Shown here: in pieces, positions 11,852 to 49,260 of the stretch | Layout of the letters: each line of letters begins with the position of its first letter | How positions within the stretch are numbered: position 1 is the stretch's first letter | Virus record (IMG/VR): IMGVR_UViG_2602041669_000011 | DNA length: 55,530 nucleotides | Reading direction: 5' to 3' (one strand) | DNA from: a virus | Taxonomy: Duplodnaviria; Heunggongvirae; Uroviricota; Caudoviricetes | Notes under the pieces: model-generated | Database searches by the model: none | Told to the model about the DNA's origin: nothing | What the model saw: only the letters and a program-made list of their open reading frames with translations | Position numbers and translations under genes: made by a program

Positions 11852-11868
11852 ATTGCTCTAATTAATTT
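11852..11868 (+). promoter_or_regulatory. C1 repressor operator-like box (ATTGCTCTAATTAATTT)
   Basis: 16/17 match to the P1 C1 operator consensus ATTGCTCTAATAAATTT as I recall it; about 20 bp upstream of ssb. Confidence 0.55.
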
Positions 11869-22397: not shown

Positions 22398-22971
22398 GCG
22401 GGGCGACTGGCCACTCAACATCCGATGCTACTGTTGTATCAACACGATTCAACAATACCCGATATGTCTTCCATGCAGTCAGTAACGATGCCTCTTCCTC
22501 CGTCGCAATATCCAAATCTACGGCATCCTGAAGTGGCGCAATATGCTCACTGGCCATCTGCATCAGGCTGTTTTTTGTTTCTTCCGCCTTCCGGATCCGG
22601 AACAGTTTTTCTGCTTCTGCATCTTTCACCCAGGCTGTGCCGTTCCACTTCTGAAACTCCCCTTCCGGGGATAACCAGGTGACATTTTCCGGTAATGGGC
22701 CAAGTTCAGAAATAAATAACGCGTCGCCGGAAGCCACGTCATAGACGGTTTTTCCCCGATGGTCTTCAACGAGATTCCACGATGCCTCATCACTGTTGAA
22801 AACGGCCACGAAGCCAGCCGGAATATCTGGCGGGGCAATATCGGTACTGTTTGCAGGCAGACCTGTATGAGGTGGAATGTATGCATCACCTTCACCAATA
22901 AACTCATTGGTTCCGGTCAGTAGATTATAAATTTTTATGGTCCGTGATTGTTCACTCATTCTGAATGTCAT
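22393..22971 (-). CDS. U: Tail fibre assembly chaperone (Tfa/U-like)
   Basis: 192-aa ORF immediately downstream of the tail fibre gene; resembles lambda Tfa / Mu U-type tail fibre assembly proteins. Confidence 0.75.
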
Positions 22972-33970: not shown

Positions 33971-34580
<610 letters not shown>

Positions 34581-34812: not shown

Positions 34813-35706
34813 ATGCATTCTTTACAGAAATACATAAAACATAAATATACTCACTTAACTTTTTTTCTCTCATTACTTTTTTTCATGATATTTGAATCTC
34901 GAGAAGATATTATCAAGAAAACATTATCTTTTTCTCTCGATGAAGTTTTACCATTCTTAATGTTTGCGTTCTTCTCCGCCTTTATCAGCATAACGATAAA
35001 GGAAAAGATAGCAAAAAAATACCCAGAAACAAACGATGGGATTACCATTATAGCTTTAATCTTTGGTGTAACGCTATATAGTGTATTTATATTATATTAT
35101 TTATATGGTGATGTATACCAATCCACAATTGCTTTACTTATAAGTTCTGTGCTACTTGGTTCTGGGTGGTGGGTTCAGGCTACTGTGAGTAAAGTAGCCG
35201 CAAGAAAATCACACACCTTAAATACACTAATGAATCAAAGAAACAGTGAATTATTTCACAAAAAAGTCTCATCGGTAGCGAATACGTTCGGGCTTAGAAA
35301 AACCATAAATGAAATTATTGCCAAACAAAGACTTATCCCAAATGATAAAGATTTAAAAAATAAAAAGGTCCATGATAAATACATATCAGCAGGTAATGAT
35401 ATGTTCTTCGTTCTTAATTATTATGAGTTTATCTGTTCAGGAATAATAAATGGAGACTTTGATGAAGATTCAATGAGAGAATGTCTTGGACAAATTGTTC
35501 CAGGTCTCGAAGTTAGAGCATTTCATTTTATAAGAATTGCAAGAGAAATTTCAGGGAGTAGCTGCTTCTGTAATTTTGTTGCTGTTTCAGATAAATGGTC
35601 TACTAATGGAGGCTCTCTTATTCTCAGACACGAGAAAGGAGAACCTGTGATCAATAACCTGACCCATTGCTTTGAAGAAACAGACTGTTATAACACAACA
35701 TCTTAA
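34813..35706 (+). CDS. AT-rich cargo: polytopic membrane protein with C-terminal soluble domain (297 aa)
   Basis: Long ORF in markedly AT-rich DNA; about four N-terminal hydrophobic helices then a roughly 170-aa hydrophilic domain; no motif recognised. Confidence 0.6.
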   Translation: MHSLQKYIKHKYTHLTFFLSLLFFMIFESREDIIKKTLSFSLDEVLPFLMFAFFSAFISITIKEKIAKKYPETNDGITIIALIFGVTLYSVFILYYLYGDVYQSTIALLISSVLLGSGWWVQATVSKVAARKSHTLNTLMNQRNSELFHKKVSSVANTFGLRKTINEIIAKQRLIPNDKDLKNKKVHDKYISAGNDMFFVLNYYEFICSGIINGDFDEDSMRECLGQIVPGLEVRAFHFIRIAREISGSSCFCNFVAVSDKWSTNGGSLILRHEKGEPVINNLTHCFEETDCYNTTS

Positions 35707-35757: not shown

Positions 35758-36234
35758 TTAATCGCCGCGCTTTAAGCATCCATCGTTTTTAGCTTGTTGA
35801 TATAATTTACTTAGCCCAGAAAGAGGAAATGTGGCAATTTTTTCATTATCAACATAAGCATCGATCGCATTAGCATTTGAATCTGCTGCATCTTGCCAAA
35901 AGGCATACCACCAAGAATCTCCAACCATTGACCCAAGATTGCTAAAAGGGTATTGCTCACCATCTAATGTTAATACTATTTTACTCTTGTCAGCATTATA
36001 CTCTTTTTTATTATTCGACGACCTTAGCAACAGGCCTAAACTACCGGCACTATCTGGTGATCCATACATGAAACCCATATCACATAAAAAACTTATCTTA
36101 TCACCATTTTGATTATGGATTGTATATTCTCTCCCCCCTCTATCTTCAATTACATTCCATTGTAGAGGATCAATTTTTGCAAATACTCCTGCTGAAATTA
36201 ACGATACAAATAATAAAAACCATCTCATATTCAT
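35758..36234 (-). CDS. AT-rich cargo: secreted/periplasmic protein with signal peptide (158 aa)
   Basis: N-terminal MNMRWFLLFVSLISAGVFA signal-peptide-like sequence; second gene of a two-gene leftward operon. Confidence 0.6.
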   Translation of the reverse strand: MNMRWFLLFVSLISAGVFAKIDPLQWNVIEDRGGREYTIHNQNGDKISFLCDMGFMYGSPDSAGSLGLLLRSSNNKKEYNADKSKIVLTLDGEQYPFSNLGSMVGDSWWYAFWQDAADSNANAIDAYVDNEKIATFPLSGLSKLYQQAKNDGCLKRGD

Positions 36235-36256: not shown

Positions 36257-36607
36257 TTATTCTGCAATATCATTTGCCCATTGCACGGCAGCAAAATGAG
36301 TGCCCAAGCCACTCAGGAAAGCAATTATTCCCAAAACAATACTAGCTGCTGTTGATTCAAACAAAGCACCAATGCTATAGCCAATAGCTCCCCATACTAA
36401 GCTAAAGACAATCATCAATGGTATTGCCAGAAATTTTATTCTTAAACTAAAAATCAGTCCAAGAAATGAACCGCCAAAGGCCCACCATGATTTAGACATT
36501 AAACCTATCAGTATTGACAGAATTCCTATTTCAATAAAGAGAATATTAGATTGCTCTTCATTGAATTTCGCATTTGTTACACCTTTACGAACATGTTCAG
36601 ATGACAT
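36257..36607 (-). CDS. AT-rich cargo: small polytopic membrane protein (116 aa)
   Basis: Three to four predicted transmembrane helices (ILFIEIGILSILIGL, AFGGSFLGLIFSL, AIPLMIVFSLVWGAIGYSIGALF, IVLGIIAFLSGLG). Confidence 0.6.
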   Translation of the reverse strand: MSSEHVRKGVTNAKFNEEQSNILFIEIGILSILIGLMSKSWWAFGGSFLGLIFSLRIKFLAIPLMIVFSLVWGAIGYSIGALFESTAASIVLGIIAFLSGLGTHFAAVQWANDIAE

Positions 36608-36753
36608 GATTAACTATCTCCAGCCACAGATAAAACGCCTTAAAATAACATTTTGTAGCACAAAGTTTCACCATGCAATGGTCAAAGTCTTTGATCCATA
36701 TCAATTAGAGTTATACATTTTAGTTGCATAGCTAATAATTTATACGGACACAA

Positions 36754-36770
36754 ATTGCTCTAATTATTTT
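36754..36770 (+). promoter_or_regulatory. C1 operator-like box upstream of immI (ATTGCTCTAATTATTTT), Op51-like
   Basis: 15/17 match to ATTGCTCTAATAAATTT; positioned upstream of c4-icd-ant. Confidence 0.55.
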
Positions 36771-36897
36771 GTTTTTTTAGTTTCATATGCTACATTAACT
36801 CGCTTGCGTGCTAATGCATTTTCGGTTTATCCTAAACAAGCATCTTAGTAAAACGGATGCCGGGATTGGAACCCCGGATAATGCAAAAGGCGACACA

Positions 36898-36919
36898 GAC
36901 GCCAAAAGCGTCTTTTTTA
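36898..36919 (+). terminator. Hairpin plus T-run between operator and c4 (terminator or attenuator-like)
   Basis: gacgc-caaaa-gcgtc followed by TTTTTT. Confidence 0.3.
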
Positions 36920-36967
36920 TGTCATGCCATCGCACAACCATACGTAGCACATAGCTACGAGATCAAT

Positions 36968-37044
36968 GGTAGTGCTGGCTGGGCTGCCGAAAGGCAGGCC
37001 GGTTCCCTTTTGCGCCGGTAGTTCCAACCCAGTCAGTGCTACCG
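36968..37044 (+). ncRNA. c4: c4 antisense RNA (immI), 77 nt, with tRNA-like terminal helix
   Basis: 7-bp helix between the 5' end (ggtagtg) and 3' end (tgctacc) followed by gCCA; internal segments ggttcc and gttccaa complementary to the direct repeat gattggaacc at 36864-36873 and 37052-37061; lies immediately upstream of icd. Confidence 0.5.
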
Positions 37045-37103
37045 CCATTGAGATTGGAACCTCACGCGGTAGCTCCTTAAATTAGCAAAAGGAGGCTGCC
37101 AAT

Positions 37104-37325
37104 ATGGCTACTATCCCTACCCCAACTCATCCTGAATTTATCTGGCGCTTTTACTCCTGCCAAAAACGTCACTATCACTTCGTTATTGCACCAACAGAAG
37201 ATGAGGCCCGCTCTCAGCTTCCTGACGCCCCATGTATTTTCTCTGCCCGTTTTTCCACTGATTCACGCAATTCTCTCAGTTACTGGTGCCTCCCTGTTAA
37301 CGCTTCTGCTCAGGAGGGACTATGA
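37104..37325 (+). CDS. icd: Icd (interference with cell division), 73 aa
   Basis: 73-aa ORF with AAGGAGG RBS, overlapping the ant start; position and size match P1 icd. Confidence 0.7.
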   Translation: MATIPTPTHPEFIWRFYSCQKRHYHFVIAPTEDEARSQLPDAPCIFSARFSTDSRNSLSYWCLPVNASAQEGL

Positions 37326-38413
37326 GAACGTCATTAGTCACCCGTGAAGAAATGATCGAGGCAATTGAACAGCACACTGCCTGTATCAGCACCAGGGATA
37401 TACCAGGCGTTATTGCCAACTACTTCATGATCACCAAACAACTTTACCGGAGAAAGGACAAGAACGCGGTTCACCGTATCCTGTTGTCTGATATCCGCGA
37501 ATACCTGCTCGAACAGGGTCATCTGAATTACGCAACCGTCGCAGCCGAAGCACGCAAGGAGGCACACAGAATGAAAGCAACTAACGTTAAATCAGAGAAA
37601 ATTCATGCACCTTCAGTTCAGGAATCGGAACTGGTGGTTGTTCAGAATCAGCCGGATGAAATTCCCGTTCTGGAATGGCAGGGAGTACGTGTCGTGACAA
37701 CCGAAACTCTTGCTAGAGGGTATGGGGTCGATGAAGCCAATATTCGCAACAATTTGTCTCGCAACCTTGACCGCTTTGAAGAAGGTAAGCATTACTTTCT
37801 TCTAACTGGTTTAAAATTAAGAGAATTTAAGAACAGAGTAACCGGAAGTTACTCTGTTGGTAAGAACGCCAGAAGCCTTACACTCTGGACAGAGCGCGGC
37901 GCTGCACGCATGTCTAAGATCGTGGACACAAATGAAGCTTGGGCATTCTTTGAAAAACTGGAAGACAGCTACTTCCGGCAAAAAGAACAGCAACCGGTCG
38001 CAATCCCCCAAACATTACCAGAAGCTCTACGCCTGGCTGCCGAGTTGGCAGAACAGAAAATGCAGTTGGAACAACAGCTAGTGGCCGCAGCCCCTAAAGT
38101 CGATTTTGCCGACCGGGTATCAGCGGCTAATGGAATCCTGATCGGGAACTTTGCAAAGGTCGTTGGACTTAAGCAAAACGCCCTTTTCTCATGGTTGCGC
38201 CAGAACGGCATTCTCATGGCTTTTGGTGCGCGCAAAAACGTACCGCGCCAACAGTACATCAACGCAGGGTATTTCACGGTGAAAGAAGTGGTGCTGGATG
38301 ATGAAGATGGCTACCAGATACGGCTGACGCCCCAATTAACGGGTAAAGGCCAGCAGTGGTTAACTCGCAAGCTACTTGATGCTGGTTTGTTAAAACCAGT
38401 AGCAATAAGTTAA
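37322..38413 (+). CDS. ant: Antirepressor Ant (Ant1; Ant2 from an internal start)
   Basis: 363-aa ORF overlapping the icd stop; C-terminal KilAC-type antirepressor domain. Confidence 0.75.
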   Translation: MRTSLVTREEMIEAIEQHTACISTRDIPGVIANYFMITKQLYRRKDKNAVHRILLSDIREYLLEQGHLNYATVAAEARKEAHRMKATNVKSEKIHAPSVQESELVVVQNQPDEIPVLEWQGVRVVTTETLARGYGVDEANIRNNLSRNLDRFEEGKHYFLLTGLKLREFKNRVTGSYSVGKNARSLTLWTERGAARMSKIVDTNEAWAFFEKLEDSYFRQKEQQPVAIPQTLPEALRLAAELAEQKMQLEQQLVAAAPKVDFADRVSAANGILIGNFAKVVGLKQNALFSWLRQNGILMAFGARKNVPRQQYINAGYFTVKEVVLDDEDGYQIRLTPQLTGKGQQWLTRKLLDAGLLKPVAIS

Positions 38414-38491: not shown

Positions 38492-38508
38492 TTTGCTCTA
38501 ATAAATTT
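38492..38508 (+). promoter_or_regulatory. C1 operator-like box upstream of kilA (TTTGCTCTAATAAATTT), Op53-like
   Basis: 16/17 match to the consensus; about 70 bp upstream of kilA. Confidence 0.55.
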
Positions 38509-40549: not shown

Positions 40550-40731
40550 TACAATCGCAGCGGGCGCTTGAGGCTATCTGCTTCAGGCATTACCCGACAA
40601 GCAGACAGAAGAAAGCCCCAGATAACATTACGCGTCCTGCAAGACGCTTAACATTAATCTGAGGCCATATCTATGCTTAGCATACGTAGATTAGCCCTCT
40701 CCCCTTTTAAGGAGCAAGGAATTTTTTACTG

Positions 40732-41328
40732 CTATGCCGCCTTTCCAGTTATGGATTCAGCGACAAGAACAACCCCATGCTTACTTCGATCTGGGTGTTC
40801 ACTCCATATCTCGGATTCAGGAATACTTACCCCGTCATAGCAAACACGTTCGCCGTCAAACGGGTAATACTGAGCGGCATCGGTGTCGAGGATAAACACT
40901 TTTAGCTCGGAAGAGCGACGGGCGATGTGTTGCCAAAGAGCTTTTCCACCTTCGTATTGCTCATTATCACTGAGCAAAACAACTCCGGCTTTTGAAGCTA
41001 CGGTTTCATAAACAAAAGTGGCTAAACCGACATCCCGGACGATTCCATCAACCACGATACCTTCAATCTGGGCAACATCGTTATCTTCCCAGAACTTCCT
41101 CACCAGTACGCCTTCAAGCTGTGGGCGACGTTGAAGTTCAAGAGTAGCGACAACCTTATGGCGCATATCACCATCGATAACAGAAGGAGCAGCCTCTATT
41201 ACGGCAGCAAATGGGGTTTTGGAATCCCATATAACCTGGTAAAGCACACCCTGGATGGTAACTCCGTCCAGGATCGAAAATCGACGAGCGACAGTACCCG
41301 GGGAGTACGACATTGGAATCACAGCCAT
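40732..41328 (-). CDS. Hypothetical morphogenesis protein (198 aa)
   Basis: ORF preceded by its own intergenic region and a terminator of the upstream gene. Confidence 0.45.
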   Translation of the reverse strand: MAVIPMSYSPGTVARRFSILDGVTIQGVLYQVIWDSKTPFAAVIEAAPSVIDGDMRHKVVATLELQRRPQLEGVLVRKFWEDNDVAQIEGIVVDGIVRDVGLATFVYETVASKAGVVLLSDNEQYEGGKALWQHIARRSSELKVFILDTDAAQYYPFDGERVCYDGVSIPESEIWSEHPDRSKHGVVLVAESITGKAA

Positions 41329-48063: not shown

Positions 48064-49260
48064 TCAGTTAGATCTGATAAATTCAATACGGTCAAAAACT
48101 GCTTTAGCAAAATCTTCCGCGGCAATTCGCGCGTTCTTCAATGCATCAGCACTACCAACATACGTTGCCGGGTTAGCTGAAATAACAGTGTCAAAAGACT
48201 CGCCGCAGCGTTCAAAACCGTCAAGGCGAGGGAGGACGACATCAAGCATATCCCCACCGAACACTTCTTTAGCCAGGCTATGGCAATACTTATGATCTGC
48301 CTTGTTACTCAACTTGGACATAAAACCAATGTTAGTCGCAAGCTGGCACTCGCAGCCTTCATCCGAAATGAGTTTTACCAACTCAGGAAGGCGGGCAACG
48401 TATTTAAGCGATGAGTGGAAATCGACAGTTGCTGGCGGCAGAGGTGTAAACAGTATATTGGCCGAGGCCAAAGCATTTTTCAGGAAAGCGTCAAGGTGAG
48501 GACCACTATCAACGAGGATAAAGTCATAATCGCTCTTCAGCTTATCAATCACATTTTCTTTCAGGACAGCATGGATGTTCTGACCCGGTAGATGCTCATT
48601 GCACAGCTCTCTCCAATCGGATGCAATAAAGGCATCGTCAATCGACGCAGGCATAACGTCAACCCCAGGTACAACAGAAGGAACAATAAACTCCTCTAAC
48701 AGCTCTTCACGGCTTACATTCTGCAACATAGCCTGTGCAGATGTTGCGTTTACGATACCAATAGAGTGTTTATGGCTTAAAAACATCGTTGCTGAAGATT
48801 GCGGATCAAGGTCAATAACCAGAATCCTTAAATCTTCCATCAGAAGATGAGGGTGAGCACGCATTGCATGCGCCAGAGAAACCGTCGATACAGTTTTTGA
48901 CACACCGCCTTTAAGATTGGAGATGAAAATCACATATGCTTCGCTGTAGCGATCCCGGTATTTTGGCACTCCGCGATGTTCATATATGTCAATGATGTTC
49001 TGAATTGACATCGCATATTTCATTGAAGAGCCAGCAGGGCGTTTATCGAAAACATAACCCTTTTCTTCCATTTCACTTACGGCATAGTCAACGTTCGCTC
49101 GAGTCAGTAGAGGCAATTTTGCCAGTGCCGCTTTCGCATAGACCTGGTAAAACTCGTTCGCGTGTAGCTCATCCTTTTGCAACTGTACTTGTTCAGTCAG
49201 AACATTGAGCATTCTGTTTGCTCTTTGAGCAACCTTGTGAAGCTGGCTGGAATCACTCAT
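48064..49260 (-). CDS. parA: ParA partition ATPase (398 aa, type Ia)
   Basis: Deviant Walker A KGGVSKT; long N-terminal DNA-binding extension typical of P1/F ParA/SopA. Confidence 0.9.
   Translation of the reverse strand: MSDSSQLHKVAQRANRMLNVLTEQVQLQKDELHANEFYQVYAKAALAKLPLLTRANVDYAVSEMEEKGYVFDKRPAGSSMKYAMSIQNIIDIYEHRGVPKYRDRYSEAYVIFISNLKGGVSKTVSTVSLAHAMRAHPHLLMEDLRILVIDLDPQSSATMFLSHKHSIGIVNATSAQAMLQNVSREELLEEFIVPSVVPGVDVMPASIDDAFIASDWRELCNEHLPGQNIHAVLKENVIDKLKSDYDFILVDSGPHLDAFLKNALASANILFTPLPPATVDFHSSLKYVARLPELVKLISDEGCECQLATNIGFMSKLSNKADHKYCHSLAKEVFGGDMLDVVLPRLDGFERCGESFDTVISANPATYVGSADALKNARIAAEDFAKAVFDRIEFIRSN

Follow-up and report, generated by a model that had tools for sequence, protein, structure and literature searches.

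A stretch of viral DNA 55,530 nucleotides long (the window; IMG/VR record IMGVR_UViG_2602041669_000011) contains, upstream of the genes icd and ant1, a short element whose ends pair in a tRNA-like manner and whose interior is complementary to a repeat on either side of it. Which RNA is encoded here, and what are the repeats for? The window comes from a P1-like phage-plasmid, since the 20-kb stretch around the element is 97–98% identical to P1, RCS47, SJ46 and other Punavirus genomes, and several E. coli plasmids of 87–187 kb, for example p95JB1A, contain the 371 bases around it without a single difference (100% identity). The region 36968–37046 (+) is the P1-type c4 antisense RNA of this phage-plasmid, an RNA of an already known kind. 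We consider it about 90% probable that the region represents the immI immunity module of the phage-plasmid, in which c4 is excised and silences icd-ant. The element is located at the P1 c4 position, upstream of icd-ant1-kilA-repL, which agrees with an earlier, sequence-only reading that had compared it to P1 c4 with its repeated target sites around icd/ant. The operon is composed of the following features:

36754–36770 (+), C1-repressor operator-like site ATTGCTCTAATTATTTT, located where P1 has Oc4/Op51; aligns with the annotated P1 operator
36804–36833 (+), putative promoter TTGCGT-18 nt-TATCCT, homologous to the P1 promoter P1c4/P51b; assigned solely through the alignment with P1
36968–37046 (+), c4 antisense RNA, identified by Rfam C4, alignment to P1 c4 and fold (z = −5.1); mature ends taken from P1 homology
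37104–37325 (+), icd (73 aa), 74% amino acid identity to P1 Icd; probable first translated target of c4 control
37322–38413 (+), ant1 anti-repressor (363 aa), Pfam ANT/KilAC 1.4e-31 and ORF6N 2.5e-18; its start overlaps the icd stop

The Rfam model C4 (RF01695) matches positions 36962–37049 over its entire length (model positions 1–87 of 87), with a score of 76.7 bits against a gathering score of 45 (E = 2.6e-13). This match and the alignment to the annotated c4 of P1 (NC_005856, 48343–48419) bear out the identity proposed by the sequence-only reading, which had delimited a 77-nt element at 36968–37044. The alignment positions the c4 5' end at G36968, exactly the coordinate given there. The length has to be corrected, as homology to P1 gives 79 nt and a 3' end at C37046. 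The predicted 79-nt RNA ends with GCC, and A37047 would complete the sequence GCCA, which occupies positions 37044–37047 directly after the terminal helix.

The closing helix of c4 is formed by nucleotides 36968–36983 and 37028–37043, which pair in 16 continuous base pairs. The acceptor-like helix of 7 bp that had been described before is part of it: G36968–G36974 pair with U37037–C37043, and two of these first seven pairs, counted from G36968:C37043, are G-U, but the helix extends well beyond them. The interior contains hairpins 36984–36997 and 36998–37019 and an 8-nt single-stranded linker. The region folds strongly, with a minimum free energy (MFE) of −46.6 kcal/mol (z = −5.1), and none of 200 shuffled sequences is as stable. 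The MFE structure reproduces the fold of the c4 family, in which a long closing helix surrounds two hairpins and a single-stranded linker. D and T arms are lacking, as had been noticed; ARAGORN finds no tRNA gene anywhere in the window, and Rfam reports C4 and no tRNA match at the gathering threshold at the locus.

The 10-bp repeat GATTGGAACC occurs exactly twice in the 55.5 kb, at 36864–36873 and 37052–37061, and the last base of its downstream copy is 43 nt ahead of the icd start codon (37104), close to the earlier estimate of 45 nt. In the P1 model, the two copies are sites a1 and a2, so the earlier view of them as repeated targets flanking c4 holds. Each consists of an a site and three flanking bases, and the second set of sites, b, had been overlooked. 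Together, c4 and its flanks contain six pairing segments:

36866–36872 (+), a1 TTGGAAC, core of the upstream repeat, in the loop of the hairpin CGGG-ATTGGAACC-CCGG; perfect 7-nt complement of a'
36883–36890 (+), b1 GCAAAAGG, perfect 8-nt complement of b'
37006–37013 (+), b' CCTTTTGC, within the hairpin-2 loop of 12 nt; pairs with b1 and b2
37021–37027 (+), a' GTTCCAA, in the unpaired linker that leads from hairpin 2 into the closing helix; pairs with a1 and a2
37054–37060 (+), a2 TTGGAAC, in the icd leader, core of the downstream repeat; starts 8 nt past the c4 3' end
37085–37092 (+), b2 GCAAAAGG, at +39 after c4; overlaps the icd Shine-Dalgarno sequence AAGGAGG (37089–37095)

The ordered module of an a site followed by a b site is present on the + strand in just two places, both in the flanks of c4, and its complement is found solely inside c4. 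The predicted duplex energies are −8.5 kcal/mol for a' with each of a1 and a2, and −13.1 and −12.4 kcal/mol for b' with b1 and b2, respectively. These energies were calculated for isolated segments, as nested co-folding cannot represent kissing contacts; in nested co-folds of c4 with either the icd leader or the IsrK-like RNA described below, both partners stayed self-folded and formed no loop-target contacts.

Two internal segments of c4 had been proposed as complements of the repeat. GTTCCAA (37021–37027) is site a', whereas GGTTCC (37001–37006) is literally complementary but only by coincidence, since just 2 of 54 c4 alleles have a complement of GGTTNC in their flanks and it is absent from the flanks of five alleles that have the same a' GTTCCAA together with GGTTTC. 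Two of the bases of GGTTCC belong to the stem of hairpin 2, and GGTTYC is a family-wide motif (Rfam consensus GCCGGuUUcC); we rejected it as a second pairing site.

The 54 distinct c4 sequences with their flanks were obtained from 120 stretches of one IMG/VR pattern scan; they are interrelated, and counts among them are not independent events. The pattern fixed the loop at eight variable bases, and alleles with a loop of the P1 length are under-sampled. Across the 54 alleles, a' and b' co-vary with each of the four sites in the flanks. The a' linker has a complement of 7 nt or more in the upstream flank (a1) of its own allele in 89% of cases, compared to 2.7% for the flanks of other alleles, and in the downstream flank (a2) in 98% compared to 2.6%. 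The corresponding values for the b' loop are 74% versus 6.9% upstream (b1) and 93% versus 8.6% downstream (b2). The spacing is also characteristic: the commonest offsets from the c4 end in the 54 alleles are +8 for a2 and +38 or +39 for b2.

The fold is conserved together with the sites. In a structure alignment of 44 distinct sequences, among them P1, P7 and Gifsy-1, which were added by hand, 98.6% of the cells of the Rfam structure are paired, compared to 31–50% when the partners are slid. Compensatory changes on both sides affect 17 of the 27 base pairs of c4, among them each of the five hairpin-1 pairs and 11 of the 17 in the closing helix, and none of 500 shuffles reaches the observed score. 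The ends of the RNA are consistent with processing by RNase P. The window c4 has AU directly before GG at its 5' end and GCCA at its 3' end. Upstream of the mature 5' end, A(−2) and U(−1) are invariant in all 54 alleles; G(+1) provides no independent evidence, as alleles were selected for it. The 3' end is NCCA in 40 of the 54 alleles. As the discriminator, 43 alleles have A and 10 have G.

The c4 RNA of P1 is a substrate of RNase P and is processed to a length of 77 bases. We propose that transcription in the phage-plasmid would begin under the C1 operator and continue through the a1/b1 leader (36840–36918) and its leaky terminator into c4 and icd-ant. RNase P would produce the c4 5' end by cleavage between U36967 and G36968, with the 16-bp terminal helix and GCC(A) mimicking a tRNA minihelix. 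In the folded c4, hairpin 2 would present b' on its loop and the linker would present a', and both segments would pair in trans with the icd leader, at a2 (37054–37060) and b2 (37085–37092). As the Shine-Dalgarno sequence is covered by b2, icd would not be translated. As in P1, the untranslated message would fail to express the anti-repressor Ant, and C1 repression and lysogeny would be kept. We infer the processing and stability of c4, the translational block and the effect on ant in this phage-plasmid.

The operator-like site 36754–36770 has two mismatches to the C1 operator consensus, which we take to be ATTGCTCTAATAAATTT. The −10 hexamer of the putative promoter, TATCCT, aligns with the annotated −10 TATAGT of P1 and is a weak match to the consensus; a consensus promoter scan did not return 36804–36833, and the sole site that it reported on the + strand is 36712–36739, upstream of the operator. 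The assignment of the promoter by P1 alignment alone and the dependence of c4 on read-through of a terminator weaken the main explanation. Downstream, the plasmid gene identical to icd is named ‘host cell division inhibitor Icd-like protein’ in RefSeq, and ant1 is 61% identical to P1 Ant1 and 96% identical to ‘roi’ of JL22. The following genes kilA and repL are 99% and 98% identical to those of P1. As c4 itself has a nucleotide identity of about 62% to P1 c4 (49 of 79 aligned positions), the c4-icd-ant cassette is a divergent allele within an otherwise P1-like backbone.

The architecture of the divergent cassette is that of P1. The c4 RNA of P1 (immI, RF01695) and that of the window fold alike, with the long closing helix around the two hairpins and the unpaired linker, and carry their b' and a' segments at the same positions, in the loop of hairpin 2 and in the linker, respectively. 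In both, a1 and b1 are located upstream and a2 and b2 downstream, with b2 at the ribosome-binding site of icd, and both have the same C1 operator and the gene order c4-icd-ant-kilA-repL. The P1 record (NC_005856) lists c4 at 48343–48419, a1 and b1 upstream of it, a2 and b2 downstream, and icd at 48470. The c4 of the window is 2 nt longer than that of P1 and ends with GCCA instead of ACCU, and the sim genes present upstream in P1 are replaced in the window. The c4 of P7 has the same architecture as well.

The pairing segments, in contrast, differ among the three. Segment a' is GTTCCAA in the window, CTGTCAA in P1 and CTGCTAA in P7, and segment b' is CCTTTTGC, TCACTAAC and TCACAATC, respectively. 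P7 is the classic case of heteroimmunity, which results from changes in a'/b' and their targets. Duplex energies of cognate partners range from −8.5 to −13.1 kcal/mol, compared to −2.6 to −8.9 kcal/mol for combinations of window partners with those of P1 or P7. Since its a' and b' differ from those of both phages, we predict that the immI of the window is heteroimmune to both P1 and P7. The 54 alleles comprise 18 a-types and 23 b-types in 37 combinations.

The a1 and b1 sites upstream of c4 are part of a separate structured RNA:

36840–36918 (+), IsrK-family leader RNA (Rfam isrK), with a 5' hairpin, the a1 hairpin, single-stranded b1 and an intrinsic terminator
36897–36918 (+), intrinsic terminator AGACGC-CAAAA-GCGTCT followed by TTTTT, found by a terminator scan

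The Rfam model isrK (RF01394) matches the leader 36840–36918 over its full length (model positions 1–77 of 77) with 58.5 bits, above the gathering threshold of 50, whereas the P1 leader scores 35 bits and falls below it. Three hairpins characteristic of isrK are present, the last of which is the intrinsic terminator 36897–36918. The a1 site lies in the loop of the middle hairpin, and b1 lies in the single-stranded stretch ahead of the terminator. The same layout is seen in Gifsy-1, the Stx2 phage F039 and JL22. As c4 lies downstream of the terminator, its synthesis requires read-through. A terminator with a perfect stem is located at most 200 nt upstream of c4 in 50 of the 54 alleles, usually at a distance of 50–100 nt. 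The Rfam model c4-a1b1 (RF03163) gives 16.1 bits in the window, below its threshold of 46.7, compared to 51 in P1 and 48.1 in Gifsy-1; since the a1 and b1 sites are present in the window, the shortfall falls in the 5' part of the model. This low score counts against the main explanation, and the model was not drawn on as evidence. In the MFE structure of the read-through transcript 36840–37115, a thermodynamic prediction only, a1 pairs with a' and b1 with b' in cis. It resembles ‘structure A’ of Hershko-Shalev et al. 2016 (PMC4825925). The role of a1 and b1 in P1 is still described as ‘putative’ in the reference annotation (NC_005856).

The Salmonella prophage Gifsy-1, to which IsrK belongs, offers a counterpart of this arrangement in its locus IsrK / orf45 (STnc1160) / anrP, where Rfam finds isrK, c4-a1b1 and C4 in this order. 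The a1 site is in the middle hairpin of IsrK, c4 lies inside ‘orf45’, and the terminator is leaky. For Gifsy-1 alone, it has been shown that IsrK exists as a short RNA of its own and acts in trans to activate the anti-repressor gene downstream, and read-through yields a longer transcript that is processed to an RNA of about 80 nt (STnc1160); the published model is not formulated in terms of c4 (PMC4825925). Counting from nucleotide 1 of IsrK reproduces every position given by Hershko-Shalev et al. 2016 (PMC4825925), including A107 and U120-G121, which are parts of the two ‘orf45’ start codons. Nucleotides G28 and G31 lie in the a1 site TTGGCGT, and C162 and C159 in the a' segment ACGCCAA of c4, so that the published mutant pairs G28A/C162U and G31A/C159U (PMC4825925) map exactly onto a1:a'. 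Because the mutated positions are within a1 and a', the compensatory mutants probe the a1:a' pairing, and the STnc1160 RNA of about 80 nt is the homologue of c4. These results from Gifsy-1 speak for the main explanation. Gifsy-1 differs from the window in having anrP, which is coupled to orf45, as the downstream gene and no icd, and in its a and b sequences (TTGGCGT there). The same authors liken IsrK to P4 seqA and STnc1160 to P4 CI RNA, and mention neither phage P1 nor RNase P (PMC4825925). A 2025 review treats IsrK and c4 as separate entries.

The likeness to P4 raises the question of whether c4 acts as CI RNA does, by pairing with sites in the nascent transcript and thereby causing premature transcription termination instead of blocking the ribosome-binding site. 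As described in PMC4825925, P4 CI is likewise a small RNA made from the leader of its own target operon with complementary sites on both sides, and the layout seqA-CI-seqC, to which the IsrK authors drew the comparison, is that found here. Translated c4 also gives a match to the Pfam family that takes its name from P4 ash. A terminator directly follows b1, and the predicted pairing of a1:a' and b1:b' in cis in the read-through transcript would suit such an activity. P4 CI is reported to act via premature termination. However, b2 overlaps the Shine-Dalgarno sequence here, and its offset from c4 is kept in nearly all alleles, which is the placement that translational control requires. In the published model of the P1-type icd-ant context, given in the notes of the P1 record and in reviews, translation is blocked and polarity follows downstream. 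We therefore regard control by termination in place of the translational block as improbable; the two activities are not mutually exclusive and could coexist.

The locus can also be read as protein-coding, with the RNA structure being secondary, because c4 is overlapped by an open reading frame:

36966–37085 (+), 39-codon open reading frame over c4, ‘ash family protein’ in RefSeq, with similarity to Pfam Phage_ASH; its ATG straddles the predicted RNase P site

Pfam Phage_ASH (PF10554) matches residues 1–38 of the 39-aa product with 33 bits, above the gathering cut-off of 26, and RefSeq annotates the coding sequence WP_001396852.1 over c4 in p95JB1A. This ash-family annotation over c4 in public records counts against the main explanation. 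The ATG is conserved in every one of the 54 alleles. In 51 of 52 alleles the frame crosses c4 without a stop codon, compared to 28 and 16 for the other two frames, and in most alleles it continues in frame into the downstream gene. The homologue orf45 of Gifsy-1 is translated, and its translation is required for the expression of anrP (PMC4825925). Against a coding function stands the pattern of conservation, which follows base pairs and not codons, with compensatory changes throughout hairpin 1 and in most of the closing helix. A purely coding function is therefore unlikely to be the main one, although the evidence from the open frame deserves notice. In addition, the frame ends after 39 codons here and is interrupted in P1 by an in-frame TAA in the b' loop, its ATG is not preceded by a clear Shine-Dalgarno sequence, and cleavage by RNase P is predicted to occur within the ATG itself. 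The openness of the frame may partly reflect the descent of the alleles and the spacing fixed by the RNA sites. We rate a mainly coding locus somewhat below control by termination. A degenerate tRNA gene or tRNA-derived element, with the flanking 10-mers being chance or recombination-site repeats, would account for the GCCA after the terminal helix but can be dismissed, as ARAGORN finds no tRNA, Rfam reports C4 at the locus, the helix has 16 bp, no cloverleaf is formed, and the repeats co-vary with internal loops across alleles.

We return to the immI module with an excised c4 that would silence icd-ant, in which a role can be sought for the upstream repeat. Tentatively, and with somewhat more doubt than conviction, we suggest that the repeat is the active part of a separately terminated RNA of IsrK type that titrates c4 through a1:a' and b1:b' pairing, and that an additional layer of alternative fates operates where the AUG and the RNase P site coincide. 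The proposal of alternative fates starts from the invariant AUG, which coincides exactly with the predicted RNase P site and from which a frame extends across c4, usually in frame with the next gene.

An Rfam search directly finds the c4 of the window, a textbook case of a regulatory RNA located where it is expected. RefSeq plasmid records with the identical sequence show an ‘ash family protein’ over the RNA gene and no c4 RNA, so immunity typing of P1-like plasmids from annotation only would miss c4. The a'/b' pair of the window is one of at least 37 combinations in viral contigs. Because it differs from those of P1 and P7 and so many combinations are seen, the a'/b' segments look suitable as a sequence marker for telling apart the immI specificities of the many P1-like plasmids in E. 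coli and Salmonella.

The P1 c4 and Salmonella IsrK literatures describe the same module under different names. Reading them jointly gives a testable role for the long-unexplained a1 and b1 sites. If the upstream RNA is a decoy, immI of the P1 type would be a switch of three RNAs, consisting of the decoy, the antisense repressor and the icd-ant mRNA, and the amount of c4 would be set by read-through of the decoy's own terminator. If the possible second layer is also true, cleavage, which makes the repressor, and translation, which melts the repressor fold, would be alternative fates of one transcript.

The Salmonella small RNA IsrK is the leader of a c4 module, the part that carries the target sites a1 and b1 complementary to the recognition segments a' and b' of the c4 antisense RNA. 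The two copies of the IsrK/c4 module compared here are located as follows:
window 36840-36918, leader with a1, b1 and an intrinsic terminator
Gifsy-1 prophage (L125, NC_010392) 34131-34329, minus strand
The region designated 'orf45'/STnc1160 in the IsrK paper (Hershko-Shalev et al. 2016, PMC4825925) contains the c4 homologue. The mutant positions published there, G28, G31, C159 and C162, coincide precisely with bases of a1 and a'. Its authors liken their RNAs to P4 seqA/CI and make no mention of P1 c4.

When the read-through transcript (36840-37115) is folded in full, its minimum-free-energy structure has a1 pairing with a' and b1 with b' in cis, forming about 23 interrupted pairs and displacing the c4 fold. 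This predicted structure suggests that the precursor could adopt alternative conformations.

The recognition segments a and b re-assort: the IMG/VR loci (L005-L124) show 37 combinations of 18 a-types with 23 b-types, and the a' segment GTTCCAA, for instance, is accompanied by four different b' loops.

The c4-icd-ant cassette (window 36740-38413) is a mosaic. Identity to P1 is 98-99% in kilA and repL versus 62% in c4, 74% in icd and 61% in ant. The closest phage copies of this cassette type are in JL22 and RCS47, where it is a second module, positioned in JL22 between pacB and c1 (locus L002, JL22 96318-96969). Since the second cassette adds to an immI of the P1/P7 type, JL22 and RCS47 have two c4 RNAs each. 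Upstream of c4, the superimmunity genes simABC of P1 are replaced in the window by:
34813-35706, plus strand, DUF4760 protein
35758-36234, minus strand, ORF without Pfam match
36257-36607, minus strand, ORF without Pfam match

The window contains further C1-operator-like 17-mers, each with one mismatch to the consensus:
11852-11868, plus strand
38492-38508, plus strand, upstream of kilA, the same place as Op53 of P1
53944-53960, plus strand
Immediately 3' of repL, where P1 has rlfA/rlfB, is an Rfam 'sok antitoxin' match (40562-40736, plus strand, 84.9 bits), with no obvious Hok-like ORF in the window's ORF list. An Rfam IS009 match is located at 22430-22628 (minus strand, 192 bits).

All 54 distinct c4 alleles from IMG/VR have the ATG found at 36966-36968 in the window, which spans the position where RNase P is predicted to cleave. 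Its frame is open across c4 in 51 of 52 alleles, versus 28 and 16 for the other two frames, and matches that of a downstream start at +58, extending at least 100 codons in 44 alleles (counts drawn from 52-54 alleles). In the window, the frame is closed by TAG 37083-85, at target site b2, and the downstream start is at 37104. The RefSeq annotation of identical plasmids overlays the c4 gene directly with a 39-residue 'ash family protein' (window 36966-37085, plus strand), which matches Pfam PF10554 with 33 bits; the c4 RNA is absent from the listed annotation. For the most part, family PF10554 may represent translated RNA genes of the c4 type.
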